Below are positions 33,823 to 52,415 of a stretch of DNA of 64,000 bases, piece by piece. Where the stretch lies: assembly GCF_053078305.1 (NCBI RefSeq), contig NZ_CP166879.1. The stretch is one strand, 5' to 3'. Within the stretch, counting starts at the first letter, position 1. The number at the start of each line of letters is the position of its first letter. A program made the translations under genes and the position numbers. The notes beneath the pieces are model-generated. The model saw only the letters and a list, made by a program, of their open reading frames with translations, made no database searches and was not told the DNA's origin.

Positions 33823-34473
33823 TTACCAGCCACCACCGCCTCCGCCACCCGCGCCGCCGCCAGCACCACCACCGGAATAACTTCGCCCCAACAAACTGGT
33901 ATTGGCCCCCAGACTCAGGTGCATCTGTAATGAGAACAAAACGCCACTACGGGCAATTTCCGGGGCGCTAACAGCCGCTGTGAGTGATGGGGTGATACGT
34001 GCTACCCATTCTCTTCCAAGGTTTGCTGAGACTGCCCAACCTGGCAACGCGTAATCCAGTTTCCGTGTTTCCCCTTTCCGCCGCCGCCCACTGTGTGTTG
34101 CCGCCTCTTTACGCGCAAGATAGTTAACGATAGCTTCACCGTGGGCATAACGTTGCTGCCCAGTTTGGGTAAACTTTGGCAGAAAAATATACCCCATACC
34201 AGTGAGATAACCGGTCAGGAAAACAGCGCTAAAATAACCCGCTGGCATATACCAGTAAAAGAATACATCTCCGACATTGATATAGAGAGAATAAAAGGCC
34301 ACGCCTGAACAAATCAGCGGTAAAAACAAAGTGATGATTACACGATTAACGCAAGGCTTGTCATCATCGCGGGCAAACAAAAGCTCAAGGGAGCAAAATA
34401 AAAAAGGAAGAAGCCAGCAGATCATAATAAACATATCGCCCATGTAACCAGGTAAATCATTTGATACCGACAA
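33823..34473 (-). pseudogene. yciQ: 3' remnant of membrane protein gene yciQ, truncated by prophage insertion
   Basis: 216-aa ORF with TM helices and glycine-rich C-tail in the position of yciQ (upstream of rluB in K-12) but far shorter than a full-length gene; its 5' side runs into prophage-end sequence; ORF start is a TTG, not a real start. Confidence 0.5.
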
Positions 34474-34620
34474 GGGTTTTAGTGAAAGGAGGTGAAATCA
34501 CCTGTAAGATACTGAAATAAAACAGGTGATCGATGATTCTGGAGGTTGTTTAGTTTTGATACTGATTAAATAAAATCCGGTATAAAATTAAGGTATCGGC
34601 AACAAATTTGATACTGCACA
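34458..34620. repeat. Putative prophage left-end (attL) transposase-binding sites
   Basis: TTGATAC(C/T)G-like motifs at ~34461, ~34557 and ~34608 plus related copies (agatactga ~34507; inverted gccgatacc ~34592); about 96 and 51 bp apart, similar to my recollection of Mu L1/L2/L3 spacing. Confidence 0.4.
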
Positions 34621-34747
34621 TACTGCTTATGGACGTTTTTAAAAGTACTTAAAATGTCTTTTATGCTAAAAAGTTTATATCAATATCGATCTGGTCACAA
34701 ATCAAGTTGAAAGTGCTCGCTAAGTGCATAGCCTGGGCTTCATGGGG

Positions 34748-35266
34748 TTACGCTTTGGCTTCTTTATGGGTTAAATTGAAATGATGCTCCTTGGTTTCAT
34801 CTCCCTCGAAAATCTCTCTAACCTTTTGATCTGATAAATTATTAAGGCTCAATGCTGCCAGGCGTCGAATACCTGTTAAAGCGATCAACTCTTGATTCTC
34901 TTGATTGCAGAATTCCAGCAATTTTTCTACCCCTTTCCTTCTCAAGGTGTAAATAACTAATTCTTGCTCTTCTTGGCTCAAAGTGTCGATGAGTTCGAGC
35001 AACTCGCTATTGCCACCGTTCTTTTGAGGGGGCTGGTGTTTTATTTCTGCACTACCTGTAATGATGGAAACAACATGTGCAGGTAAGTCGCTTAAACGGT
35101 AGGCAAATGCTCTCCCTCTGATACCAGGTGTAGTTACCGAACGTTTTTCCCATCCTTCATTTTTTGCTCGTTTATGAAGCCCAGCCAGAGATGAAGGAAG
35201 ACCTCCAACCCCCAACAAGTCACTGGCAAGGATCCATTCTTGGTCAAGGATCATATCAAACTCCAT
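34748..35266 (-). CDS. Mu c-type prophage repressor
   Basis: 172 aa, transcribed leftward ~280 bp from the left end; N-terminal motif LPSSLAGLHKRAK shared with the transposase N-terminus (LPSSLAGLHKKAK). Confidence 0.7.
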   Translation of the reverse strand: MEFDMILDQEWILASDLLGVGGLPSSLAGLHKRAKNEGWEKRSVTTPGIRGRAFAYRLSDLPAHVVSIITGSAEIKHQPPQKNGGNSELLELIDTLSQEEQELVIYTLRRKGVEKLLEFCNQENQELIALTGIRRLAALSLNNLSDQKVREIFEGDETKEHHFNLTHKEAKA

Positions 35267-35483
35267 TTGATATTAACTTTTGTTTATATCTTTTATGCGG
35301 TTTATTTCAAAAATAACTCAATAAAAAACAAATAGATACAGAGCAAATTTAAAAATTTGAAATTAACCAGTTGATATTTACTAAGTTAATATCTAACATA
35401 TCAAACATACACTAGTGAGTAACTCAATAGAGTAGCACACATGAGTAATAAAGTTTGCCATAGAAAGTACACAGGGGGCCATT
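35267..35483. promoter_or_regulatory. Early regulatory region (divergent repressor/early promoters and operators)
   Basis: 217-bp AT-rich intergenic region between divergent repressor and ner, with ttgatat-type direct and inverted repeats. Confidence 0.5.
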
Positions 35484-35729
35484 GTGAGTCTTATTGAAGA
35501 TTGGTCTTCCGCCGATATAAAGGCAGCCTTAGAAAAACGCGATACCAATTTGTCACGTTTATCAAGGGAAAATAATTTGCAGCCTAGGACTTTGGGTAAT
35601 GCTTTGCGAGTTCCCTACCCTAAAGGTGAAAAGATAATTGCTAGGGCTATAGGTGTAGAGCCACAGGTTATTTGGCCTACTAGATATGAACGACGTGCGC
35701 GGAGGAAATATGTGGGTTGCAATGACTGA
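35484..35729 (+). CDS. ner: Ner/Nlp-family DNA-binding protein
   Basis: 81 aa; resembles Mu Ner / E. coli Nlp (...LSRLSRENNLQPRTLGNALRVPYPKGEKIIARAIGVEPQVIWPTRY). Confidence 0.75.
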   Translation: MSLIEDWSSADIKAALEKRDTNLSRLSRENNLQPRTLGNALRVPYPKGEKIIARAIGVEPQVIWPTRYERRARRKYVGCND

Positions 35730-37794
35730 ATTGATTTCATTCAGTGACCTACCTAGTTCTTTGGCAGGTCTGCACAAAAAAGCAAAGAGGGAAGCGTGGA
35801 AAACGCGGCTAAAACCAGGGGTAAAAGGGAAAGTTTTAGAGTGTGAAATAGGAGCTTTGCCTTTAACTGTTCAGCAGGCAGTACGCGAACGCCATGCCCT
35901 GCAACTGATGACGCAAAAAGCCGATGAATCACCGGCTCCGGTGGTGACAAAGGCCAGACGCTCACCTGCCGTGGTTGATGCGGTGGAGGCATATCGCGGA
36001 TCACCCCAACTGATGGTCGAACGCCTCAATGCCCTGACTGAAAATCAGCGCCAGGTGGCTGATGCACGAATCGCGATCGTCAGCGAAGTTCTGAAAGTCG
36101 CGCAACAACCTGGTTTCAGCTGTGCGAAGGCTATCCGGTTTATCGTTGACAACCTGGCACGTTCGCAGTTGGACGAGCGCATTGTGGCAATGGTTGAGAC
36201 GGCGAACGCCAAAAAGGGAAACAGCCGCGCGTTAAGTGAAATCACGCTGAAACGCTGGATTGCGGCCTTTAACAAGGCGCAGAACGCCGCTGAACGCCTG
36301 CTTTTACTGGCACCGGGTAAGCGCCAGGAAATAAAAGCCGAAGATATTAACTGGCTGCCCGAATTTCTGGCGCAGTATCGCCAGTCAAACGGCCGACCAA
36401 TGACCGAGGCTTACGAGGATTTTGTCGCTGAATGGCAGCACCGGCACGCCGATGAGCCTTATATGCTCGATATCATGCCGTCTTATGACACCATTCGCCG
36501 CGCAATGAAGAAACTGCCGGAAGTGGTGAAACAAAAAGGCCGGGTGACCGGCAGTGAATACCGCCAGCTTGAGGGATTCACGCGCCGCGACTGGTCAAAA
36601 ATGCCGGTGAATTATGTCTGGATTGGTGACGGTCACGGCATGAAGCTGAAATGCGCACACCCGGTTCACGGTCGGCCATTTGCACCGGAAGTGACCTTTG
36701 TTATCGACGGTGGCACGCGCTTTGTGGTGGGCTGGAGCCTTGACCTGGCTGAAAATGTTTTCGCCGTAGCCGGTGCCATACAGCACGGCATTCGCCATCA
36801 CGGCAAACCGTTTCTGTATTACTCGGATAACGGCTCCGGGGAAACCGCCGACATCCTGGATAAGGAGGTTGTGGGGATACTGCCGCGACTGGGGATTAAT
36901 CACCCGACCGGGATTGCCGGTAATCCGCAGGGACGAGGCATTATCGAACGGCTTAACCGCACATTACCGATGCGCATAGCCCGTAAATACCGCACCTATT
37001 TCGGGAAAGGTGCAGATCGCGAGACGTTACGCAAAACCAACCGCGATTTACGCTCGGCATTTACTGCCCTGCAACAGGGCAAACGGCTGAACGCCCGGCA
37101 GCAGTCAGCGATGCGTGATTTACCGTCCTGGTCTGAACTGATTGATGCCATTCGTGACGGTGTTGAGTGGTACAACAACCGGCCGCACGATGAATTACCG
37201 GTGAAGCCGAACGGCAAGCATTACAGCCCGGCGGAGTTCAGAAAAAAACGCCTGGCGGAAGAGGACACGGAAATTGAATGGCTGTCCGATGTTGAGCTGC
37301 GGGATATGTTCCGGCCGATGGTGGAACGCCCTGTAAGACGCTGTGAAATACGCTGGCTGAATAATATTTACTACGCGCCCGAGCTGCGTGACGAGCATGG
37401 TCGTAAGGTGCTTATCAGCTATGACATTCATGATGCCGAACGAATTACCGTACGTCGCCTGGATGGCAGCGTGATTTGCGAGGCGGTATGGGACGGTAAT
37501 AAACGCGAAGCCTTCCCGGTTAGCGCGGAATACTACAAACAGCAGCAACGCCTTAAAGGCATGCGTAAACGCGCAGAGGAAAAAATCCGTGATGCCGAGG
37601 ATGAGGTTGTCAACGTGCTGGAGCACAAGCCGCAGGAGCCCTGGCTGGAAAACATATACCGCCCTGTGGGTAATACGGTGACCGTTCAGCAACCGGTCGC
37701 TGACGATGAACCTGATGAAGAATACGAGCGTAATTTCCAGCGGGGATTGCAGTTGCTGGAAGCGAAATTAAAAGAAAATGACCCGCTGGCCTGA
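35710..37794 (+). CDS. Mu-type DDE transposase (MuA-like)
   Basis: ORF 35686..37794; N-terminal repressor-like DNA-binding domain; DDE core (WIGDGHG, YYSDNGSGE); start codon ambiguous. Confidence 0.9.
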   Translation: MWVAMTELISFSDLPSSLAGLHKKAKREAWKTRLKPGVKGKVLECEIGALPLTVQQAVRERHALQLMTQKADESPAPVVTKARRSPAVVDAVEAYRGSPQLMVERLNALTENQRQVADARIAIVSEVLKVAQQPGFSCAKAIRFIVDNLARSQLDERIVAMVETANAKKGNSRALSEITLKRWIAAFNKAQNAAERLLLLAPGKRQEIKAEDINWLPEFLAQYRQSNGRPMTEAYEDFVAEWQHRHADEPYMLDIMPSYDTIRRAMKKLPEVVKQKGRVTGSEYRQLEGFTRRDWSKMPVNYVWIGDGHGMKLKCAHPVHGRPFAPEVTFVIDGGTRFVVGWSLDLAENVFAVAGAIQHGIRHHGKPFLYYSDNGSGETADILDKEVVGILPRLGINHPTGIAGNPQGRGIIERLNRTLPMRIARKYRTYFGKGADRETLRKTNRDLRSAFTALQQGKRLNARQQSAMRDLPSWSELIDAIRDGVEWYNNRPHDELPVKPNGKHYSPAEFRKKRLAEEDTEIEWLSDVELRDMFRPMVERPVRRCEIRWLNNIYYAPELRDEHGRKVLISYDIHDAERITVRRLDGSVICEAVWDGNKREAFPVSAEYYKQQQRLKGMRKRAEEKIRDAEDEVVNVLEHKPQEPWLENIYRPVGNTVTVQQPVADDEPDEEYERNFQRGLQLLEAKLKENDPLA

Positions 37795-37865
37795 AATAAA
37801 AAAATAACCCGAGCGGCGACTCAGGTTATTTGATTAAACAAGGTATCAAATGAAAGGTTAATAAT

Positions 37866-38798
37866 ATGACTGATATTAACGATGTAATCAAGACCATTGA
37901 TGAACTTATTGATGGCGGCGTACTGACGCAGTATGCCATCGCCAGAGAGGCGGGAATTTCCGACGGCACATTATCGGCTTTCCGTAAGGGAAAATATAAA
38001 GGCGATAACGCTGCTGTGGCTGCTTCCCTGCGTTCCTGGTATGAGAACTGGAATAAACAAAGCGCACTGCCGGAACCGCCGCAGTTTGTGGAAACGCAGA
38101 CAGTCCAGGAGCTGCGCACACTGTTTCAGGCGGTTCGTCTGATGGGCTGTATTAACGTTATTGTGGGCGTACCGGGTGTGGGTAAAACGGCCACTGCCCG
38201 TAATTACTGCCAGGAGCAACCAAACACCTGGATGATCACCCTGTCACCCGCGCACTCCAGCGTCACGGAGTGTCTGCTGGAGCTGGCCGATGCGCTGGGG
38301 ATTGATTACACCCGCGCGAACAAAGGGGCATTATCCCGCGCCATCCGCCGTCGCCTGATGGGAACGCGTGGACTGGTGATTGTGGATGAGGCGGATCATC
38401 TTGGTATTGACGGTCTGGAGCAACTCCGGGCAATTCAGGACGCCACGGGGATCGGGATGGTGCTTATTGGTAACCCGCGCGGATTGTTTAAAGGTGGACG
38501 CCGCGCCTTTGATGATTTATCGCGCCTGTTCAGCCGTCTTGCCCGTACAAAACAACTTCGCAAGGCCAAAAAGGCGGATGTGCTGGCCATTGCCAGTGCG
38601 TGGGGGATCAGTGGTGAGGCCGAGCTGGCCGTCATGCAGGCTATCGCTGAAAAGCCGGGAGCGTTACGCGTTCTGACACATACGCTTAACCAGGCGTGGC
38701 TCACCGCCAGCGGTGAAGGCGCGGCGCTGACAGAAAAACATATTAATGCGGCCTTTAAAGAGGTTTATACCAACCCTGAATTACTCTCACAGGTGTGA
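37866..38798 (+). CDS. Mu B-like AAA+ ATPase (target DNA activator)
   Basis: 310 aa; N-terminal HTH, Walker A GVPGVGKT, Walker B VIVDEADHL. Confidence 0.85.
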   Translation: MTDINDVIKTIDELIDGGVLTQYAIAREAGISDGTLSAFRKGKYKGDNAAVAASLRSWYENWNKQSALPEPPQFVETQTVQELRTLFQAVRLMGCINVIVGVPGVGKTATARNYCQEQPNTWMITLSPAHSSVTECLLELADALGIDYTRANKGALSRAIRRRLMGTRGLVIVDEADHLGIDGLEQLRAIQDATGIGMVLIGNPRGLFKGGRRAFDDLSRLFSRLARTKQLRKAKKADVLAIASAWGISGEAELAVMQAIAEKPGALRVLTHTLNQAWLTASGEGAALTEKHINAAFKEVYTNPELLSQV

Positions 38799-39022
38799 TT
38801 ATGGCGGTATTTAATATTCCTGATATTTACGGACGCTTTTACCTGGTTAATTTCGATAACGTGAAGGTGATTTCACTGGCCGAAAATAAAGAATGTGGCG
38901 ATTTACTTTTTGAATTTAATGACCGCACACGAATGGTGATATCTGCCGGACTTGATCGCGAAGGTGCGACAGACGTTTACAGCGGAATATGCCGTTCTGT
39001 TGGTGCGAAACAAGTCAGCTAA
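38795..39022 (+). CDS. Hypothetical protein (prophage accessory region)
   Basis: 75-aa ORF overlapping B stop by 4 bp; no recognisable motif. Confidence 0.45.
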   Translation: MIMAVFNIPDIYGRFYLVNFDNVKVISLAENKECGDLLFEFNDRTRMVISAGLDREGATDVYSGICRSVGAKQVS

Positions 39023-39289
39023 ATGAGGTGTTATATGAATATGCAATCCTGCGGTAACAAAATGAATTTATTCGACTCCCTGAACAGCGCGCGCCGTCTG
39101 ACCGAACTTGCCGGTGCGGTACTGGAACGCAGTAAGCGCTATCCGCAACGTTTTGCACTGAAAACCACGCCGCCGGTAGGCAACGTGCAGGGAACCGGTG
39201 AAATTGAAATCACCATACAGACCAACGGCCTGCGCCGCCGTGTGAAGGCCACCCGCATCAGCGGCTGCACGGTTTACTGGGAGGTGTGA
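39023..39289 (+). CDS. Hypothetical protein (prophage accessory region)
   Basis: 88-aa ORF, tightly packed in the same operon; start may be an internal Met. Confidence 0.45.
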   Translation: MRCYMNMQSCGNKMNLFDSLNSARRLTELAGAVLERSKRYPQRFALKTTPPVGNVQGTGEIEITIQTNGLRRRVKATRISGCTVYWEV

Positions 39290-39366
39290 GGTGAAAAAAA
39301 AATCTCATTGCATGGGCGTGGTCGAGTGGTCTTATTGAGTTTGGTTACGTCCTGCCGGAAGGTGCA

Positions 39367-39573
39367 TTGCCGATAGTTGCCGGAAAGCCTGCCACGGTAC
39401 GGCATGTGATTGAGGTTATGGCGCGTCATGGACGTGATGAACAGGAGCAGTTACTGGTTCCGGGGATACCGGAAGCGGTGACGGAGGAAGAAGCCTTTAA
39501 TGCCATGATTCGGTTCTGCCGTGAGGTCAGACGCCGGGTCAGTTATCCAAACAGAACGAGGACCAGAGGATGA
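39367..39573 (+). CDS. Hypothetical small acidic protein
   Basis: 68-aa ORF; possible upstream GTG extension near 39292; stop overlaps next start. Confidence 0.4.
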   Translation: MPIVAGKPATVRHVIEVMARHGRDEQEQLLVPGIPEAVTEEEAFNAMIRFCREVRRRVSYPNRTRTRG

Positions 39574-39842
39574 GTAAAGTCGTACGCATTATTTTCGAAT
39601 ACAAGGAGCACGTTATCCATAAAAACGCGGATGGAACAGTGCGCATGGGGATAAGTCTGGACATACGTTCAACCGGGATAAAGCAGAAAGGTGATGGACC
39701 TGCCATGATTTTTGGGGTGGTTATGCTCGCGGAAAGCAGAGACTTTGCTGAACTTGTGGCAATGAAAGCCAGTGCGCTCATGAAAGATATGAGCATGCGT
39801 TCCGGGGTTATTAAAGGTAATGAATTTAATCAGCAGGGGTAA
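39570..39842 (+). CDS. Hypothetical protein, paralogue A of a tandem pair
   Basis: 90 aa, MSKVVRIIFEYKEHVIHKNADGTV...; N-terminus resembles the next gene. Confidence 0.5.
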   Translation: MSKVVRIIFEYKEHVIHKNADGTVRMGISLDIRSTGIKQKGDGPAMIFGVVMLAESRDFAELVAMKASALMKDMSMRSGVIKGNEFNQQG

Positions 39843-39846
39843 TTCC

Positions 39847-40140
39847 ATGAGCAAAGTACGCGTTATTTTTGAATTTAAGCATGTTTCGCATGACGAAAAA
39901 CCGGCAGGCAATGACTGTGTTGAAGTGCATGAAAAGATTGGTGTGGATGTAAAAACAGAACGTGATACGAATAACAGGCCGACGTCACTCTGTGACGTTT
40001 ATGTAAGTATTCTCCAGTATCACAGTCCTGAAATTATTCAGTTTCTCTCAGCGGAATTTCAGGCATCTGTACAGGCTTTTGGGGCGGATGCCATCATTAA
40101 ACGCCACCGCGTGCATAAAGCATCAGGCACACTGCAATAA
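39847..40140 (+). CDS. Hypothetical protein, paralogue B of a tandem pair
   Basis: ORF 39820..40140; likely start MSKVRVIFEFKHVSHDEKPAGND... Confidence 0.5.
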   Translation: MSKVRVIFEFKHVSHDEKPAGNDCVEVHEKIGVDVKTERDTNNRPTSLCDVYVSILQYHSPEIIQFLSAEFQASVQAFGADAIIKRHRVHKASGTLQ

Positions 40141-40151
40141 GGAAAAACAAA

Positions 40152-40682
40152 ATGGCAAAACGCGTTACAAAATTAAAGGCCGCAGCAGAGGCGGCACCGC
40201 AGACCCGTGAAGAGGTCAGCCGCGATATCCGCACCCTGGGCGATATTCAGCGAGAGGCGCTGCGCCTGGAAACAGCGATGAATGATGAAGTGGCAGAAAT
40301 CACCGCCCGTTATACGCCGCAGATTGAAAACCTTAAAAAAGAAATCAAAGTGCTTTTTAAGGGGATTCAGGACTGGTGCAAAACCAACCGTGATGAGCTG
40401 ACGAACGGCGGCAAAACCAAAACTGCCAATCTGACCACCGGAACAGTGTCATGGCGGCTGGGAAATCCATCATGCAGCGTCAGCCGTGATGTGGAAGGTG
40501 TGATTGAAATGCTGCGCCGTATGGGGCTTGAGCGATTCATCCGCACGAAAGAGGAAGTGAACAAGGAAGCGGTCCTGGCGGAGCCGGATGCAGTGAAAGG
40601 CATTGCCGGTATTAAGGTGAATAAAGGCGCTGAAAGTTTTTATGTCGAGCCTTTTGAACAGGACGCCGGACTGAATAAATAA
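40152..40682 (+). CDS. gam: Host-nuclease inhibitor Gam (Mu Gam family, DNA-end binding)
   Basis: 176 aa; size, position after B and sequence features consistent with Mu Gam. Confidence 0.75.
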   Translation: MAKRVTKLKAAAEAAPQTREEVSRDIRTLGDIQREALRLETAMNDEVAEITARYTPQIENLKKEIKVLFKGIQDWCKTNRDELTNGGKTKTANLTTGTVSWRLGNPSCSVSRDVEGVIEMLRRMGLERFIRTKEEVNKEAVLAEPDAVKGIAGIKVNKGAESFYVEPFEQDAGLNK

Positions 40683-40779
40683 CACCGCATTAAATCTTTA
40701 AATATCACATCGTTTTAAGTATGGCGCTCGCGTCAGGGGACTGTCTGCGCCTGTAAACTGAAAATAAGGAACAGGATAT

Positions 40780-41322
40780 ATGGCATATTTTTATTTCAAA
40801 TTAGACCGTGTGCAGACAAATAAATATTTCACCAAATATCAACAGACTGTTTTACCGCTACGCAACAGTATTCTTCGGGCATTACTGAAAAATACAGGCG
40901 CTGCCGGATTGCGCTTAAAGCCGTTTGCCATGGACGTAATCAGTGAGTTTTATTTTTCTGGTACTCTGCCTGCGGGCTGGCGTAAGCGCGATGATGTGGC
41001 TTTTATCGGGGACGGACCGTGCTTTATTGCCAGACCTGATGAGTCATGCCCTGAAGGACCGGCGATTGCCGCAATGATTGAAGCCGCTGAACGCGAGTTA
41101 AGAAAGCGTCCTGATTTCCTTGTCTGGCTCTGTGAAAAGCTGGGGGTAATGAGAATCCCCTCCATGTTTAACATGGACTCCTGGTGGACCCCGTCGCTCT
41201 CCCGTGATGCCCTGTGCGTGGTGTTTAAAGTAGGCGCTTATGGCAGGGAAATAAAAGGGGGTATTCCTGAAGAATGCCAGGAGATTAAACATTCTGAATA
41301 TGTGGCGCTGACGGAGGAATAA
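40780..41322 (+). CDS. Hypothetical protein
   Basis: 180-aa ORF, no recognisable motif. Confidence 0.45.
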   Translation: MAYFYFKLDRVQTNKYFTKYQQTVLPLRNSILRALLKNTGAAGLRLKPFAMDVISEFYFSGTLPAGWRKRDDVAFIGDGPCFIARPDESCPEGPAIAAMIEAAERELRKRPDFLVWLCEKLGVMRIPSMFNMDSWWTPSLSRDALCVVFKVGAYGREIKGGIPEECQEIKHSEYVALTEE

Positions 41323-41325
41323 TTC

Positions 41326-41859
41326 ATGATTGATGCAAAAGTGCTTGAAGGGGTTAAAAACTGGCTGAGTATTTACGGGCGTCTGACCTGCGGAGTTCTG
41401 GCTGAAAAAATGAATATGCCGCCATCCTCGATGGTTTATTTTCTGCGTGATGCGGTTGATGCCGGGGTGCTGACGGAATGTAACGGTTTTTATGATATTC
41501 CGCGTCCCCGCCCGGTGCAGCCGGTTCGTCGCAAATGCAGCCAGGAGTCTGCGGCTGATGATGTTCAGTGGTGCAGCTTCAGAAAATCCCTGCCGTGGAT
41601 TGAGGGGCATGATATTCCGTCGATGGCGTGGGAATTTGCTCAGGGCATACTGACCTGTGAAACCGTTTATGTGGTGGCTGAAGTTGATGAGCAGGCCATG
41701 AAAGAAGGCGTGCCCCAGTTTGTGATGGCGTATATCGACATACGCCTGGGTGTCATTATCTGCGGTTTAAGCGGCTGGAATATCACCTCGCGCGTTCTGC
41801 GTTACCTGATTGTTGACCGGACGGCCGCGCCTGCCGGGATATCTGCGGAGGTGGCGTAA
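41326..41859 (+). CDS. Hypothetical protein (possible N-terminal winged helix)
   Basis: 177-aa ORF, 3 bp after previous stop. Confidence 0.45.
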   Translation: MIDAKVLEGVKNWLSIYGRLTCGVLAEKMNMPPSSMVYFLRDAVDAGVLTECNGFYDIPRPRPVQPVRRKCSQESAADDVQWCSFRKSLPWIEGHDIPSMAWEFAQGILTCETVYVVAEVDEQAMKEGVPQFVMAYIDIRLGVIICGLSGWNITSRVLRYLIVDRTAAPAGISAEVA

Positions 41860-42374
41860 TGTTCTTTAAAACATCAAACCCTTCCGCGCTGGCCGCGTGG
41901 CAAAAATATCAGCAGGACTGCCAGAAAGTTAAGGATGAGGCAAAACGCCTTGAGGCCGTGCTGAATGTTGCGTGCCGGTCGGTATTTGTATCCGGTATCA
42001 GTGGCTTTTGTTTTAAAGGGCTGCGCTTTATGGATGACAAATATCCTTTTCATCGCGACTTATGGCGAAAACCGACTGCGTCGAATGGCTGGAGCTGCAC
42101 ACCGCGCACATCACGTATTCCCAAAGCCCTGCGCGTTGCCTCTGACGAACTTAACAGTCTGTGGCGTGAATATTCGCCCGTCACGTATGCCAGAACCGAT
42201 GCACTGTTGTTCTGGCTGGGTATTGATTTCTCGGCAATCATGTTTGGCCCTGTGAAGTGGTTCTGCGTTGACGATGTGATTTACCTTGAGTGCGGCGTAA
42301 AACCCGCAAATCAGAAAATGACCGAAATTCTGTCTGATGAGTTTTATGCTGCTGAAAAGCGAGTCAGGGGGTGA
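41859..42374 (+). CDS. Hypothetical protein
   Basis: 171-aa ORF, start overlaps previous stop. Confidence 0.45.
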   Translation: MFFKTSNPSALAAWQKYQQDCQKVKDEAKRLEAVLNVACRSVFVSGISGFCFKGLRFMDDKYPFHRDLWRKPTASNGWSCTPRTSRIPKALRVASDELNSLWREYSPVTYARTDALLFWLGIDFSAIMFGPVKWFCVDDVIYLECGVKPANQKMTEILSDEFYAAEKRVRG

Positions 42375-42377
42375 TGT

Positions 42378-42929
42378 ATGATGATTTTACAACCCATGGG
42401 GCGAAAAGGTCAGGCACCTGCTCATGTCCGTGCGTGGACACCTGAAGAAGATGCGCTGCTGATTGCGCTTTATCCATCCACCCCGGTTAAGGATATTGCT
42501 GTCAGGGTAAAAAGAAGTTTCTGGGGTGTACATAACCGGATTGTTTTATTACGCGGTACTTACCCGGAGTTGCTCAAATGCAAACGTCCAAGATTTAAAC
42601 ATGATGAAGATAAATTTATCCGAAAAAATGCCAGAACGATGACCGGTAAGCAAATAGGAGAATATCTGGGGCGAGACCGGGATTCTGTCCACAATCGGGC
42701 GCGATATATTGGCGTAAGCATGAAAAAATACGGAGAATTGCTGCCCTTCACCCGTATACCTGACGATGATGTTCATCTTATTCGTGAATTACGGGATGCT
42801 GAATCACCACGACGTCTTACCTTCCGGGAAATAGGCGAGAAATTTGAATTATCCGAGAGTACGGTGAATTTTATTTATCACCATCGCCGGACTGCCGAGG
42901 ACGCTGTATTACGGGAGTTAACGCCATGA
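42378..42929 (+). CDS. Hypothetical DNA-binding protein with three tandem ~45-aa Myb/HTH-like repeats
   Basis: 183 aa; repeats begin WTPEEDALLIALY..., KHDEDKFIRKNAR..., IPDDDVHLIRELRD..., each ending in an S-x-x-N-R/H-R-R-like motif; AT-rich codon usage. Confidence 0.5.
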   Translation: MMILQPMGRKGQAPAHVRAWTPEEDALLIALYPSTPVKDIAVRVKRSFWGVHNRIVLLRGTYPELLKCKRPRFKHDEDKFIRKNARTMTGKQIGEYLGRDRDSVHNRARYIGVSMKKYGELLPFTRIPDDDVHLIRELRDAESPRRLTFREIGEKFELSESTVNFIYHHRRTAEDAVLRELTP

Positions 42930-43111
42930 TAAAGAGACTTGTATTTTTCGCAATTTTCGTTCCGGTGTTGGGGGTTGGTTTTATATTTGCGATTACAGGA
43001 AACCTGTCCATGATGCCAGATATTTGGTTCTTTATCAGGATGTCGCTCTTCCTGTTTATTATGAATCTTCTTATCGACATATATATCCGTATTACTGGAA
43101 AACATAAATGA
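42926..43111 (+). CDS. Small hydrophobic membrane protein (2 predicted TM)
   Basis: 61 aa; MIKRLVFFAIFVPVLGVGFIFAITG... and FFIRMSLFLFIMNLLIDIYI; very AT-rich. Confidence 0.45.
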   Translation: MIKRLVFFAIFVPVLGVGFIFAITGNLSMMPDIWFFIRMSLFLFIMNLLIDIYIRITGKHK

Positions 43112-43482
43112 GAAAAATCACGTCCTTGTCAGAGTTACAGGAGATGAATATGAGTATTGAATTAAGATCGTCTTATGAGTATCGCAAATTTCTTATCGCC
43201 GGAGGCATGAAACCGGAAGATGTGGAAAAAATCGTTTCTTTTATGGATAAGGAATGTGACAAGCGGGATGTGTCAGAAATTATTATGGATGACATGATTC
43301 TGGATTCAGTCGTGGCGTTAAGTCCGTTATGGATTGTGCATTCTCTTGCGGAAATTGCCAAAGGCACCGATAAACAGGCAGCTGTTGCTGCCCTTCAGAC
43401 GCTTAATGAAATGCGTATATCTCCACGCCCGACATTAATACAGATGATTTTGTCCAGTATGGAGGATAAAGCAAATGAATAG
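43108..43482 (+). CDS. Hypothetical cytoplasmic protein
   Basis: 124-aa ORF, start overlaps previous stop; possible internal start at MSIELRS. Confidence 0.45.
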   Translation: MRKITSLSELQEMNMSIELRSSYEYRKFLIAGGMKPEDVEKIVSFMDKECDKRDVSEIIMDDMILDSVVALSPLWIVHSLAEIAKGTDKQAAVAALQTLNEMRISPRPTLIQMILSSMEDKANE

Positions 43483-43672
43483 TCTACCCGCTGGATGGGC
43501 GCGCCCTCTGATGGCTAAGAAGCATCATTTTTTTAAAACTGGCGATAATATCAGTATATGTAGGCGGTGGTTATATCTGGCTCATAATCGCGAGCCGGAT
43601 ACATTTGAAAGCCCTGATGACTGTGCCGAATGTCGCAGAAGACTGAATAAGGAGAAAGATAATGGACAGTAG
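43475..43672 (+). CDS. Hypothetical small protein with Cys/His cluster
   Basis: 65 aa; C...H...CAEC spacing suggests a possible small zinc-binding knuckle. Confidence 0.4.
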   Translation: MNSLPAGWARPLMAKKHHFFKTGDNISICRRWLYLAHNREPDTFESPDDCAECRRRLNKEKDNGQ

Positions 43673-43958
43673 TTCGCAGTTGTTCTGGTGTTTATATATC
43701 ACATCGTTTTTCGGTGCATTCGTCATTACACGATGGCTGTGCCGGAAAGTTATCAGTATTTTTCATAAAAAATACCTGATTGGGCTGGCGGCGACTTCTC
43801 TGATTAATGCACTTGCCAGATATCATAAGGGGGAATACTACTCAAGAATAAAAACTGATGATGGTTTTAATATTTTTGTGATTCCTCCGGAGTATCGGGT
43901 TCAGCTCGATCGGGAAAGTAATATCTATCATATCAGCAGGAGTGTTGATACAGCATGA
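43662..43958 (+). CDS. Small membrane protein (N-terminal TM helix)
   Basis: 98 aa; LFWCLYITSFFGAFVITRWL hydrophobic segment. Confidence 0.45.
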   Translation: MDSSSQLFWCLYITSFFGAFVITRWLCRKVISIFHKKYLIGLAATSLINALARYHKGEYYSRIKTDDGFNIFVIPPEYRVQLDRESNIYHISRSVDTA

Positions 43959-44464
43959 GAGGGAAACTGATATCCGCTATTCATGTGGCAAAGCGCGAGC
44001 TTGCCCTGGATGATGAGACCTACACATTCGTACTACTGGCAGCCACCGGCAAAACCAGTTGCCGGGATATGTCACCGGATGAGTTATCCCGCGTGCTGGA
44101 TGTTTTCAAAAAACGCGGTTTTAAAGTGCGTCAGAAACCGGTTAACCGGGCCTTAAAACCGGGTACGGTGACCGCCAAAATTCGCGCCATCTGGAAAGTG
44201 ATGCACTGGCAGGGCTTTATCTCTGATGGTGCGGAAACCGCTCTTAACCGCTGGGTGAAATCGCAGACGGCCGCGCAGAACGGCGGCGAAGGTGTGGCAA
44301 ACTGGCAGTGGCTGGAGCAACACCCCGCCCTGGCCTCAGATGTGCTGGAGCGTCTCAAGCGATGGCACCGCCGCAAAATGCTGGCCGCGATGGGAATGCC
44401 CGAACGCACGCTGATGGGGTATGACGCCGTTTGCAGGCAGTATGAAAAATCACTTCCCCGTTAA
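43955..44464 (+). CDS. gemA: GemA-like protein (Mu gp16 family)
   Basis: 169 aa; last gene of early region before terminator; motifs consistent with GemA family. Confidence 0.6.
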   Translation: MRGKLISAIHVAKRELALDDETYTFVLLAATGKTSCRDMSPDELSRVLDVFKKRGFKVRQKPVNRALKPGTVTAKIRAIWKVMHWQGFISDGAETALNRWVKSQTAAQNGGEGVANWQWLEQHPALASDVLERLKRWHRRKMLAAMGMPERTLMGYDAVCRQYEKSLPR

Positions 44465-44467
44465 CCC

Positions 44468-44500
44468 CAAATCCCGCCACAACGCGGGATTTTTATTTTA
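44468..44500 (+). terminator. Early-operon intrinsic terminator
   Basis: aaatcccgc-cacaa-gcgggattt hairpin followed by ttttatttt directly after gemA stop. Confidence 0.55.
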
Positions 44501-44533
44501 AACTTACCGGGAACGCGAGAACCGGAGGCTGAT

Positions 44534-44959
44534 ATGGCAGAAACTCAGATGAGCATGTTTGGTGGTGACAGTGAGCAACTGCACGCCCTTATCGACCGCC
44601 TTGATGACATCCCTGATGATGTTCTCAAAAAGAACTGGCCGCGTACCCTGTCTGAACTGGTTGAAGTCACCGGCGCAGAACTTCAGCGTCAGGGGATTGA
44701 GCCGGTACTGGCCGGTAAACTGGCACGCAAGGTGGCTGCGGCTCAGGCCGCCTATATGGGCGGACGGGGTTATTACCTGCCGGTCGGGGAATCTCTCTTT
44801 GCCGAGCTGCGAAACAATGAGATATTTTCGCGCTGGGACCGGGGCGAGAAAATTGAATCCCTTCGCCGCCATTACCGGATGTCAGAAACCCAGATTTATA
44901 CCGTCATACGTGAACAGCGCCGTCTGCATCTGGCAAGAACACAACCGCCACTTTTCTGA
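44534..44959 (+). CDS. Mor/C-family transcriptional activator of middle/late genes
   Basis: 141 aa; C-terminal HTH (ETQIYTVIREQRR); sits between early terminator and lysis genes. Confidence 0.65.
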   Translation: MAETQMSMFGGDSEQLHALIDRLDDIPDDVLKKNWPRTLSELVEVTGAELQRQGIEPVLAGKLARKVAAAQAAYMGGRGYYLPVGESLFAELRNNEIFSRWDRGEKIESLRRHYRMSETQIYTVIREQRRLHLARTQPPLF

Positions 44960-45030
44960 TATTCCGCAAAGCCTGCCGCCTTTCCTTCACCGTTACGCTG
45001 ACTCAGAGAACATCATGAGACAGCGTAACA

Positions 45031-45531
45031 ATGCCAAAACTCCCCGCACCACTGCGTAAAAAGCTGATTGCCCTTGTTCTGGCCGGTGCCGGGACGTTCA
45101 CGATTGCCACGCATTACACCGGTTACTGGGAAGGGAAAGAAAACTCCACGTATATCGATCCCACCGGTACACCCACCATCTGTTACGGCCATACCGGCCC
45201 GGATGTGAAACCGGGTATGACCCTGACGGATGAAGAATGCCTGGAACTACTGGAAAAGGACATGAAATGGGCCTTTGCGGCCATTGATCGGCGTGTTCAG
45301 GTGCCGCTTACCCGTGGTCAGACGGTGGCGCTGGCTTCGTGGATCTTCTGGGCCGGTGAAACGAACTTTCGCAACTCCACGCTTCTGCGCCTGATCAATG
45401 CCGGGCAGATGCCCGCGTCCTGTAAGCAGTATATCCGCTGGATTTATTCAAAGGGGGTGAAGCTCCCCGGCCTTGAGGCCCGCCGTTCGGCGGATGAATG
45501 GTTATGTCGCTACGATTTGCCGAAAGTCTGA
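45031..45531 (+). CDS. Phage endolysin (lysozyme family, signal-anchor type)
   Basis: 166 aa; N-terminal hydrophobic segment; lysozyme-like catalytic region. Confidence 0.8.
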   Translation: MPKLPAPLRKKLIALVLAGAGTFTIATHYTGYWEGKENSTYIDPTGTPTICYGHTGPDVKPGMTLTDEECLELLEKDMKWAFAAIDRRVQVPLTRGQTVALASWIFWAGETNFRNSTLLRLINAGQMPASCKQYIRWIYSKGVKLPGLEARRSADEWLCRYDLPKV

Positions 45532-45605
45532 ACCGCTTCTGGCGACCGATCATGATAGCGCTGCTGTGTGCGGTACTGCTGTTACGGGGTGTCCTGTGGC
45601 TGCGG

Positions 45606-45994
45606 TGAATAATGCCTTACCGGCCCTGATTGCCGGGGCGTGCATGGCGGCGCTGGGGATTATCGCTGTACTGGTTGCCGCGATATGGGGAATGCACCAG
45701 AAGACGCAGCGCCTTGAAGACAATAATCAGGTGCTTGTGCGTGAGCGGGATGAGGCGCGTCAGGTGCTGGCAAATCAGCAGCACACCCTGCAACTCATTT
45801 CACAAATCAGTGAGGCGGCCACGAATGAAAAACAACAGAACATTCAGCACAGCGAGGGGCAGCAGAGCGTTGTCCGCCGGTCGCTGGCAGCAGTGCCTGC
45901 GGCCTCTGCCCCTGTTCCTGATGATGTGGCTGATCGGGTGCGCCGGGCCGTCTGTGAAATACGTGCCTGTGAAGCCGGTGCCGATCCCCGCTGA
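45606..45994 (+). CDS. Putative i-spanin (Rz-like)
   Basis: Part of ORF 45473..45994; probable GTG start near 45606; TM helix then coiled coil. Confidence 0.45.
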
Positions 45995-46196
45995 ATGGCT
46001 GGCTGACTGCCTGGTCCCTCCTGCGCCGGAGCCGTTCACGTTTGGGGCATCGGTCACTTACAACCTGCAACTGCTGGCGGTGATCAAGAACTGCAACGTG
46101 GACAAGGCCAGTATTCGTCGTCTGGAGGCGCGGCGACAACATGAATTTACTGATATGGCCGGAACGCCTGCTGTTCCGGCAGGAAAGACGAAGTAA
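45825..46196 (+). CDS. Putative o-spanin lipoprotein (Rz1-like), out of frame and overlapping i-spanin
   Basis: Part of ORF 45630..46196; lipobox LIGC followed by proline-rich mature region; start uncertain. Confidence 0.4.
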   Translation: MKNNRTFSTARGSRALSAGRWQQCLRPLPLFLMMWLIGCAGPSVKYVPVKPVPIPAEWLADCLVPPAPEPFTFGASVTYNLQLLAVIKNCNVDKASIRRLEARRQHEFTDMAGTPAVPAGKTK

Positions 46197-51106: not shown

Positions 51107-52415
51107 TTTAGGTTATGCCGCCACGCTTCCCTCAAAAGAGGCGGTGGCATACTTCCGCGCCAAAGGGGCGCATATCAGCTGGAACTGGTTCGAAACAGAC
51201 GCGGATGTTCATGCCCGTTCATTCACGGCGGCAAAAGTGGCACGCCTGGACGTACTGACCACACTACAGGCGGAAGTGCAGCGTGCTGTTGATGAGGGGA
51301 TTTCACAGAAAGCATTTATCCGCACACTGACACCCCGCCTGCAAAAGCTGGGATGGTGGGGAAAGCAGATTGTGGTGGACAGTGCCGGTAACGCGGAAGA
51401 AGTGCAGCTGGGCAGCCCCCGCCGTCTGGCGCTGATTTACAACGTGAACACCCGCGTGGCTTACAATGCCGGGCGTTACACGCAGATGATGAACAACACG
51501 GACACGCATCCGTTCTGGCAGTATGTAGCGGTGATGGACAGCCGCACCCGCCCGGCGCATTCCGCCCTTAACGGGCTGGTATTCCGCTATGACGATCCGT
51601 TCTGGAATACACACTACCCACCCAATGGCTGGAACTGCCGCTGCCGTGTCCGGCCATTGTCTCAGGCCCGTCTGGATGCAATGGGGTTATCCGTTTCATC
51701 CGGTCAGGATCATCTTTCCACCCGCAATGTTGAGGCTGGCGTGGATAAGCAGACCGGAGAAGTCAGAGAAATGCCGGTGACCACATATTCAGATGGCACC
51801 AGAACCATGACACCGGATGTGGGCTGGTCATATAACCCCGGTTCGGCGGCGTTCGGCACAGACCAGGCGCTGATCCGCAAGCTGATCGAAGTGAAAAGCC
51901 CGGCGTTACGGGAAATGGTGGTTCAGGAGATGAACAACAGCCCGGAGCGGCAGCTGGCGTTCCGCATCTGGGCAAAAAACATCATGAAAACCCGGCGAGG
52001 CGGTAACGATATCCGCACGCTGGGCTTTATGACCGAAAGTATTGCGCAGGCGGTGGAAAGCCGGACGGGAACGCCACCGGCCCGCCTGCTGGCGATGAGC
52101 GGTAAAAATGTGCTCCATGCGGACAGCGTGAAACATCAGAATGACGGTATCGCCCTGACGCCGGAGGATTTCGCGCAGCTTCCCGCCATGCTGGCTTCCC
52201 CCGATGCCGTGCTGTGGGATCATGTCCATCAGAACCTGCTTTACATCACTGAAACCCGTGACGGAACGGCAAAGATTGCCGTCAATGCGCCTTATGGTGT
52301 GAAGCGCCAGCCGGATAAGCTGGATGTGGTAATTAATGCTTACCGGGTAAATAAATTTGATATTGAAAAAGCAATAGAGGGCGGAAAGCTGGAACTACTG
52401 GAAGGTAAATTGTAA
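51090..52415 (+). CDS. Head morphogenesis protein (Mu F / gp30-like)
   Basis: 441 aa; follows portal. Confidence 0.75.
   Translation: MAQGIDLGYAATLPSKEAVAYFRAKGAHISWNWFETDADVHARSFTAAKVARLDVLTTLQAEVQRAVDEGISQKAFIRTLTPRLQKLGWWGKQIVVDSAGNAEEVQLGSPRRLALIYNVNTRVAYNAGRYTQMMNNTDTHPFWQYVAVMDSRTRPAHSALNGLVFRYDDPFWNTHYPPNGWNCRCRVRPLSQARLDAMGLSVSSGQDHLSTRNVEAGVDKQTGEVREMPVTTYSDGTRTMTPDVGWSYNPGSAAFGTDQALIRKLIEVKSPALREMVVQEMNNSPERQLAFRIWAKNIMKTRRGGNDIRTLGFMTESIAQAVESRTGTPPARLLAMSGKNVLHADSVKHQNDGIALTPEDFAQLPAMLASPDAVLWDHVHQNLLYITETRDGTAKIAVNAPYGVKRQPDKLDVVINAYRVNKFDIEKAIEGGKLELLEGKL

Follow-up and report, generated by a model that had tools for sequence, protein, structure and literature searches.

A variable slot upstream of gemA in an Sp18-type Mu-like prophage of Escherichia coli that probably holds five separately exchangeable small genes

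Five small genes just upstream of gemA in an Sp18-type Mu-like prophage of E. coli are probably the contents of a hypervariable slot in the semi-essential early region; they appear to be unrelated to each other and to be exchanged one at a time. The window analyzed is a 64,000-nt stretch of contig NZ_CP166879.1 (GCF_053078305.1), in which the five ORFs, named c1 to c5, occupy positions 42378-43958. The genes are most likely early-lytic accessory genes for host takeover, anti-defence or competition, which names a class of activity, as none of the five proteins has a homologue of known function; each would act alone as a dispensable early-lytic helper, and the five would not act jointly as a defence system protecting the lysogen. 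The useful negative in this reading is that an AT-rich run of small genes, by eye a defence island, would be nothing more than the usual variable cargo site in the early operon of Mu, and the comparison documents the gp12-gemA slot as an exchange hotspot for single genes among Mu-like phages.

All five ORFs described in the initial annotation are present, co-directional on the + strand and tightly packed: c1 (42378-42929, 183 aa), c2 (42926-43111, 61 aa), c3 (43108-43482 as the longest ORF, 124 aa), c4 (43475-43672, 65 aa) and c5 (43662-43958, 98 aa). Junctions within the stretch are overlaps of 4-11 nt or a spacing of 3 nt, and a good Shine-Dalgarno site precedes each start. The 124-aa length of c3 is that of the ORF, but the protein most probably starts at the ATG at 43150 and has 110 aa (43150-43482), since the AGGAG motif 7 nt upstream of this ATG, the RefSeq call, the beginning of the PHROG match at residue 15 and the start in the sister prophage L005 all agree. 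Purifying selection acts on all five (ω, or dN/dS, of 0.10-0.30 between two prophage variants), which indicates that they are genes and not chance ORFs. A search of positions 41800-44700 on both strands against Rfam (E ≤ 1) gave no RNA family.

The stretch had been judged much more AT-rich than the flanking phage genes, and windowed GC bears this out: the stretch has 42.5% GC, the remaining early region 51.5% and the late region 57.1%. Of 1249 sliding windows of equal length, only 18 have a lower GC content, and the 15 lowest that were listed all lie at the prophage left end and immunity region (33.9-36.1 kb). The AT-richness is nevertheless not peculiar to c1-c5, as other small early genes of the same prophage have 42-45% GC. 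The genes differ in composition from the conserved Mu backbone and have an origin separate from it, and the earlier proposal that these are accessory genes, placed in the Mu early region before gemA, is supported.

The host element recurs across E. coli, in 231 of 5426 complete genomes; Sp18 itself is a predicted intact Mu-like prophage (PMC2669165). Mitomycin does not induce Sp18. On the left, the stretch is bordered by a homologue of Mu gp12 (41859..42374, + strand, 171 aa; 54% identity to Mu gp12 over 169 aa, E 3e-67; phrog_2314; RefSeq 'Mu-Gp12 family protein') and on the right by GemA of the gp16 family (43955..44464, + strand; 43% identity to Mu GemA, E 1e-39; phrog_286; RefSeq 'gp16 family protein'). 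These flanks belong to a wider synteny with Mu that includes Gam (57% identity), gp11 (67%) and a Mor homologue, and c1-c5 occupy the gp12-gemA interval, where Mu has gp13-gp15. From 37866 to 44464 the genes form an unbroken co-directional string with gaps of at most 98 nt. Directly after gemA lies a terminator-like hairpin (44469..44492, + strand; 9-bp stem with five G-C pairs, followed by a T-run), the only such site with at least five G-C pairs found in a + strand scan of 34000-46000. By position the five genes thus belong to the B-to-mor part of the Pe early operon, and they share its direction.

A simple consensus scan found nine promoter-like sites versus 14.2 expected from shuffled sequence, the best matching at no more than 9 of 12 positions, with no convincing promoter inside the c1-c5 stretch. 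The genes would be translationally coupled links in a long early operon running from ner to gemA and, by analogy to Mu, would be made from the early promoter Pe once the repressor is lifted, the lysogen expressing them at no more than a basal level. In Mu, the semi-essential genes have largely unknown functions and are carried on the Pe transcript, of which lysogens show low basal expression (PMC3820752); such transcription leaves room for a lysogen phenotype. Literature searches on Mu semi-essential gene function, Sp18 expression and early ORFans of PB1-like phages turned up no work that names the c1-c5 proteins; a paper on the MuC sliding clamp has no bearing on the gp12-gemA interval.

Inheritance of the genes is mosaic in the three lineage variants that were read in detail. 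The sister prophage L004 retains c1, but in place of c2-c5 it has a 110-aa ORF, a Mu gp14-like gene and a reverse-strand gp15-like gene; another sister, L005, has three additional ORFs between c2 and c3. Beyond the lineage, the contents of the gp12-gemA slot differ among Mu, SfMu and a Salmonella prophage. The initial annotation had taken the five genes for a single cassette, and this part of its interpretation does not hold: because near-identical sisters carry different subsets and distant phages carry relatives of c1, c3 or c4 singly, c1-c5 do not appear to be one module inherited as a unit, but rather small genes that are probably exchangeable individually. They vary among related phages as the semi-essential early accessory genes of Mu do, and are most likely non-essential. 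The combination is still common within E. coli, since a 2.7-kb query spanning the stretch is covered to at least 80% in 207 of 232 matched records (about 89%), and some of them, such as c2 and c5, may function jointly. Nor are the genes undescribed, as had been thought; all five fall in PHROG families (c2 weakly), and they are annotated as hypothetical proteins in more than 200 complete E. coli genomes, including those of O157:H7 strains.

c1 is a basic protein (pI 9.9; ω of its gene 0.30) that matches phrog_323, 'transcriptional regulator, D5-like' (E 6.3e-59), and its residues 66-168 align with the whole of Mu gp9, also a member of phrog_323 (30% identity, blastp E 8.6e-9). The initial annotation, which recognized no known Mu product among the five, therefore missed one, although c2-c5 are indeed not homologous to Mu gp13-gp15. 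The three tandem helix-turn-helix (HTH)-like repeats that it described are supported, the first (r1) being weak by sequence (E 0.3 against the second, r2); r2 matches the first half of Mu gp9 (E 1.5e-7) and the third repeat (r3) the second half (E 1e-3). Searched against the PDB, the c1 family profile retrieves tandem-HTH proteins (2lvs, E 9.5e-4) and the HTH of the Mos1 transposase (E 5e-3). By sequence c1 can be placed in the Mu gp9 family as a tandem-HTH protein with one extra N-terminal repeat; it is probably a DNA-binding regulator, which would bind DNA and tune phage or host transcription.

It is possible, but unlikely, that c1 is not accessory at all and is instead a relocated and enlarged Mu gp9 with a core role in the early programme or transposition, leaving only c2-c5 as cargo. 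c1 is kept at 94-97% identity in both variant prophages (94.5% in L004) while its neighbors are swapped, and its retention in all three variants means that it may belong to the core, as a regulator, and not to the accessory genes. It shares its PHROG with Mu gp9, its GC content of 46% is the nearest of the five to that of the backbone, and gp9 had no match among the ORFs upstream of gam that were compared with the early proteins of Mu, which leaves c1 as the only homologue of gp9 found in the prophage. These points are weighed against a sample of only three lineage variants read in detail and against the distribution of c1 relatives, which are scattered, as accessory genes would be, among phiSM, Vibrio phages and Klebsiella phages; a c1 relative is also carried among the early genes of a P2-like phage. 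On the same side, Mu gp9 is dispensable in Mu. It belongs to the semi-essential region, for most of whose genes no function is known (PMC3820752).

c3 and c4 are small soluble proteins that would be binders or inhibitors of host factors. c3 is acidic (pI 4.8) and all-helical, with six helices, and matches phrog_1988 (E 5e-44); it aligns with SfMu gp14 (YP_009152200) at 34% identity over 83% of its length (tblastn E 8e-9) and has the conserved helical motif common to the family, which places it by sequence in the SfMu gp14/PHROG 1988 family. Its relatives occur without the other four genes in SfMu, the vB_YpM phages and the Mu-like loci L011/L012 and L014. One database entry bears the name of a HEAT/helical-repeat protein, but c3 has no structural match to HEAT/ARM repeat proteins, and homology of the c3 family to the Mu gp14 family is likewise rejected (hhalign probability 0.2%). 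c4 has a beta-rich core followed by a C-terminal helix and carries the signature GW..P...H.F...C..W...C..C, in which the conserved H18, C29, C50 and C53 probably form a His-Cys3 zinc site. Its relatives are found in about 290 lytic PB1-like Pseudomonas phages at 37-45% identity (PHROG 2358, e.g., JG024 gp88), and one, in a Mu-like prophage of Salmonella, stands by itself immediately before gemA. Foldseek hits for c4 are a DUF3565 protein (E 3.4e-3) and DUF3039 (E 4.8), so that c4 may be a zinc-binding mini-domain of this type, but Pfam reports no DUF3565 for c4; the comparison also covered PWWP/Tudor-like barrels, a candidate fold only. Homology of the c4 family to Mu gp13 was rejected (hhalign probability 2%). 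For both families, c3 in Mu-like early regions and c4 in temperate Mu-like and lytic PB1-like phages, these are the first structural or sequence signatures.

A more specific role for this pair, with c3 and/or c4 made early as anti-defence proteins or host-factor inhibitors that neutralize a protein of host immunity or repair, and with the remaining three genes unrelated, is doubtful. Both proteins are small and early, c3 is acidic, the c4 family spans the early regions of lytic PB1-like and temperate Mu-like phages, the adjacent Gam is itself an inhibitor of host nucleases, and counter-defence cargo would be expected in a variable slot. Fold searches, uninformative overall, gave no likeness of c3 or c4 to any known inhibitor, and the low ω of the two genes (0.10-0.17) gives no sign of an ongoing arms race.

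c2 and c5 are the membrane-type proteins of the set and would act at the inner membrane, in competitor exclusion or envelope manipulation. c2 (pI 10.4) has the two transmembrane spans assigned to it earlier, with clear Kyte-Doolittle peaks of 2.79 and 1.9, and positive ends (N-terminal MIKR, C-terminal RITGKHK). Its PHROG match is weak (phrog_19804, E 1.3e-5), its ω is 0.15, and tblastn finds it in the sister prophage only, with nothing outside the lineage; it is thus predicted to be a lineage-restricted membrane hairpin with two spans. c5 matches phrog_17269 (E 9e-66), has no sequence match in the PDB, and has homologues in only six clusters in a set of 5.8 billion proteins, every named one being from E. 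coli; it is restricted to the Sp18-type lineage. The membrane anchor that had been attributed to c5 (conserved hydrophobic residues about 7-28) is probable but not certain: an uncharged stretch of 22 residues is flanked by D2 and R24/R28/K29, and the best 19-residue Kyte-Doolittle mean of the N-terminus is a moderate 1.43.

Judged from its sequence variation, c5 exists as two ancient alleles that recombine independently of near-identical flanks. The N-terminal 29 residues are conserved (dN 0.03) and the C-terminal domain of about 65 residues is dimorphic; the alleles, counted in 64 and 162 genomes, are 50% identical in protein and 64% in DNA between flanking genes that are 96-100% identical. 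Nucleotide identity drops progressively after about 43710 and is back to 87-100% at the start of gemA. Between alleles dS is saturated (1.9) and ω is 0.20. c2 is 98% identical where c5 is only 50% identical, so it does not co-vary with the c5 allele. c5 is accordingly a newly identified dimorphic gene with a probable membrane anchor, and a sensible first target for exclusion or competition screens.

The proposal of the initial annotation that the genes form a superinfection-exclusion or abortive-infection module now looks improbable. Such a module, of all five genes or of c1, c2 and c5, would protect the lysogen, with c1 as sensor or regulator and the membrane proteins as effectors. In favor of it are the presence of two small membrane-type proteins beside a DNA-binding protein, the occurrence of the combination in most Sp18-type prophages, the resemblance of the dimorphic c5 to a specificity determinant, and the low basal activity of Pe in lysogens of Mu (PMC3820752). 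A Mu-like Pseudomonas phage, Fc02, also has documented small exclusion genes; that for a 7.9-kDa exclusion protein and gene 10 adjoin its repressor and ner genes and are transcribed in the lysogen (PMC9936078), whereas c1-c5 sit in the middle of a lytic early operon with no convincing promoter of their own. PADLOC-DB 2.0 has no defence profile for c2-c5 or for nine other ORFs (variant slot cargo and neighboring early ORFs), and the sole match among the five genes is a weak one of c1, via its HTH repeats, to a 'homing endonuclease' profile (E 0.0083, 13.8 bits); Pfam, searched with the five proteins joined by glycine linkers, returned nothing at E ≤ 0.001, and NCBIfam gave sub-threshold noise only. 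The components do not co-occur outside the lineage, L004 keeps c1 without c2-c5, c2 and c5 show no co-variation, and c4-family proteins are abundant among obligately lytic phages. GC content is not uniform across the prophage and the five proteins are not all homologous to characterized Mu proteins, so the idea of a defence module is weakened, not formally refuted; as far as the sequences go, c1-c5 are not a recognizable defence system and nothing points to defence or abortive infection.

A narrower version, and still a long shot, would make c5, possibly with c2, a membrane-anchored specificity determinant in phage-phage or phage-host conflict of Mu-like phages, its alleles held by balancing selection in E. 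coli and moved between otherwise identical prophages by recombination roughly at gene boundaries; if true, transposable phages would have in c5 a dimorphic factor for exclusion or compatibility of a new kind. Finally, it is very improbable that c2 acts like a pinholin to time lysis by the signal-anchored endolysin encoded at 45031-45531: in size, N-in/C-in topology with two spans and charged C-terminal tail it is similar to class II holins, the endolysin begins with a hydrophobic, anchor-like segment, and no holin is recognized among the ORFs listed beside the endolysin, but c2 lies about 1.9-2 kb upstream in the early operon, with gemA, the terminator-like hairpin and mor in between, is absent from L004 and has no PHROG holin match, and for lysis of Mu itself extensive mutant screens are described as having identified only an endolysin (PMC9239132).

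The reading of c1-c5 as separately exchanged early cargo can be set beside several known systems. The exclusion proteins of Fc02 are, like c2 and c5, small hydrophobic proteins of a transposable phage, but this likeness is by description and not by sequence, and the genes differ in position, those of Fc02 adjoining the repressor and ner and c2 and c5 being well inside the early operon. The PHROG 2358 proteins of PB1-like phages share the c4 signature and are likewise found among small same-strand hypothetical ORFs, though in obligately lytic phages of Pseudomonas, in contrast to the temperate E. coli prophage that carries c4. SfMu gp14 has the same helical motif as c3 and also occupies the slot upstream of gemA, where its neighbors are Mu gp13-like and gp14-like genes instead of c2 and c4. 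Mu gp9 (E8) shares tandem HTH repeats and PHROG 323 with c1, but has 99 aa and lies upstream of gam, whereas c1, of 183 aa with an extra N-terminal repeat and a C-terminal tail, lies downstream of gam and brings a gp9-family gene into the gp12-gemA interval. The gp12-gemA interval of Mu (gp13, gp14 and the reverse-strand gp15) is shorter, at about 760 bp compared with 1581 bp here (about twice as long), its gp15 is on the reverse strand whereas c1-c5 are all on the + strand, and its three products have no homology to c2-c5 by blastp or hhalign; it nevertheless has the same position in the operon and, like the c1-c5 stretch, consists of small, tightly packed genes of unknown function that vary between relatives.

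A Mu-like transposable prophage occupies the window from ~34.3 kb onward, with its genes in the order repressor, ner, transposase A, B (37866), small early genes, Gam (40152), gp11 homologue (41326), gp12 homologue (41859), five small ORFs (c1 to c5), GemA (43955), Mor (44534), lysis genes and then morphogenesis genes. The prophage is of the Sp18 type of O157 Sakai; Sp18 is described as an intact Mu-like prophage that is not induced by mitomycin C (PMC2669165). Matching DNA is present in 231 of 5426 complete E. coli genomes, chiefly STEC/O157:H7, and also, as an inserted Mu-like phage, in two Stx-converting phage records; in LC727881.1 (L005) and LC727895.1 (L004), a Mu-like phage of Sp18 type sits within the Stx prophage. 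The RefSeq annotation of a sister prophage, L001, includes a "tRNA-OTHER" (L001 19364-19443, the equivalent of ~52160-52240 in the window) on the minus (opposite) strand, between head-morphogenesis and virion-morphogenesis genes.

The best supported reading of c1 to c5 is that they are early-lytic accessory genes. It is very probable that they were acquired independently and lie in a variable slot, the gp12-gemA interval, within the Mu semi-essential region; their assignment to a class of dispensable genes with early-lytic accessory roles is made with moderate confidence. The five ORFs are located as first annotated (c1, 42378-42929; c2, 42926-43111; c3, 43108-43482, most likely starting at 43150; c4, 43475-43672; c5, 43662-43958). 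Junctions are overlaps of 4-11 nt or a spacing of 3 nt, and a Shine-Dalgarno site precedes every start. Comparison of two prophage variants gives a dN/dS (omega) of 0.10-0.30 for every gene, which indicates that all five are real coding genes. Their reported AT-richness is also confirmed, with a GC content of 42.5% versus 51.5% for the early region and 57.1% for the late region (c1, 46%; c2, 35.5%; c3, 41%; c4, 45%; c5, 40%); within the prophage, the left end/immunity region alone has a lower GC content. Other small early genes of the prophage also have 42-45% GC, making low GC a feature of its small accessory genes in general.

c1 is a basic protein with three HTH repeats and is therefore predicted to bind DNA; its family profile matches the tandem-HTH DNA-binding proteins 2lvs and the Mos1 transposase HTH in the PDB. 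c2 (61 aa) has positive ends and two strong hydrophobic spans. c3 is acidic and belongs to a family with 26 representatives at E <= 1e-3 among 1.84 billion proteins and a conserved motif, LSxxWI..L..IA.G.DK.AAVAAL; its predicted structure has six helices (pLDDT 78), and a fold search gave no informative match. None of the five proteins matched Pfam, NCBIfam or PADLOC, and the alternative cargo genes of the slot were likewise without annotation when searched. The sequences of c1 to c5 are already public as hypothetical proteins and PHROG families. The proposal that c1 to c5 form a defence or abortive-infection module is improbable, having no positive evidence in its favor and several points against it.

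Slot contents differ among three near-identical prophages, the variant versions being those of the Mu-like copies in LC727881.1 and LC727895.1. The window carries c1-c2-c3-c4-c5; L005 carries c1-c2-[75 aa]-[103 aa]-[130 aa]-c3-c4-c5', where c5' is its version of c5; and L004 carries c1 followed by a 110-aa ORF, a Mu gp14-like gene and a gp15-like gene on the reverse strand. The three-gene insert of L005, in which the 75-aa ORF comes first, matched phrog_6925 and phrog_6158. Compared with L005 2809-3725, the c2/c3 junction of the window (43108-43150) keeps 11 nt (ATGAGAAAAAT) from the start of the 75-aa ORF, which marks this junction as the site of an insertion or deletion; such a boundary also accounts for the spurious extension of c3 by 14 codons at its N-terminus. 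The start of c3 is most likely 43150 (110 aa) rather than 43108.

Relatives of c3 occupy the same slot in SfMu, Yersinia vB_YpM phages and further Mu-like prophages, where their neighbors are Mu-type gp13/gp14 genes. A c4 relative in a distinct Salmonella Mu-like prophage overlaps the GemA start, and others are encoded in 289 records of Pseudomonas (PB1-like) phages, which are obligately lytic; the JG024 relative lies amid further small hypothetical ORFs of the same strand. The P2-like phage phiSM carries a c1 relative in its early region, and c2 and c5 are found in this E. coli prophage lineage only. The differing slot contents, together with genes found singly elsewhere, point to a hotspot of single-gene exchange upstream of gemA. 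The "five-gene cassette" of the initial annotation thus dissolves as a unit into one state of this slot, an ordinary example of a known phenomenon.

c5 (window 43662-43958; L001 10863-11159; L005 4237-4533) has a conserved N-terminal segment that is uncharged and, after it, a domain of ~65 residues. In O157:H7 strain 380-94, gp12 and c1 to c4 share 98-100% protein identity with the window and GemA shares 96%; c5 shares 50% protein and 64% DNA identity. Nucleotide identity between the c5 alleles is high across the N-terminal anchor, drops progressively beyond ~43710 and is back at 87-100% where gemA starts. Residues 1-29 are near-invariant (dN 0.03 despite dS 1.3) and the C-terminal domain is divergent. 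Saturated dS (1.9), an omega of 0.20 and near-identical flanks argue for two old alleles under purifying selection that are exchanged by recombination. The window allele occurs in 64 complete E. coli genomes, against 162 for the second allele; variation in c2 does not follow that of c5. This dimorphism is the sole feature here that merits follow-up.

Genes from B (37866) to gemA lie in a single co-directional string in which no gap exceeds 98 nt; a consensus scan gave fewer promoter-like matches than in shuffled sequence, none of them strong. By analogy to Mu, c1 to c5 would be transcribed from Pe upon derepression. Pe gives only low basal transcription in Mu lysogens, and the functions of the Mu semi-essential genes on the Pe transcript are largely unknown (PMC3820752). 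A terminator-like hairpin just after gemA (44469-44492; 9-bp stem, 5 G-C pairs, then a T-run) is the only one on the + strand with at least 5 G-C pairs in a scan of 34000-46000. Since it lies between gemA and mor, mor may be separate from the early transcript; the gap ahead of mor is 70 nt. An Rfam search of the region found no RNA family.

Unlike Mu, the prophage has a single Mor/C-family gene before the lysis genes; within 44534-45531 the endolysin, with a hydrophobic, signal-anchor-like N-terminus, directly follows mor, and no holin was recognized beside it. Upstream of gam are two neighboring AT-rich ORFs (43-45% GC), 39570-39842 (90 aa, phrog_4107) and 39820-40140 (106 aa, phrog_2230), with similar openings: the first begins with MSKVVRIIFEYK, and the second has MSKVRVIFEFK from its residue 10 onward. 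These openings resemble the start of Mu gp7 and may reflect an old tandem duplication. Between gam and the gp11 homologue, a 180-aa ORF (40780-41322, phrog_2260) lacks a counterpart in the set of Mu early proteins compared; its L004 version (196 aa) is strongly diverged with a similar C-terminus, marking a second site of variation in the early operon.

The genes flanking the slot are clearly homologous to those of Mu (Gam, 57% identity; gp11, 67%; gp12, 54%; GemA, 43%), in which the gp12-gemA interval carries gp13, gp14 and reverse-strand gp15. Sequence comparison and hhalign found no relationship of c2 to c5 to gp13, gp14 or gp15. The initial view that none of the five is recognizable as a known Mu product fails for c1, of which residues 66-168 match the entire Mu gp9 (E 8.6e-9; phrog_323 common to both). 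Mu gp9, a 99-aa protein with two HTH, is encoded upstream of gam in Mu, and c1 differs from it by an additional N-terminal repeat.
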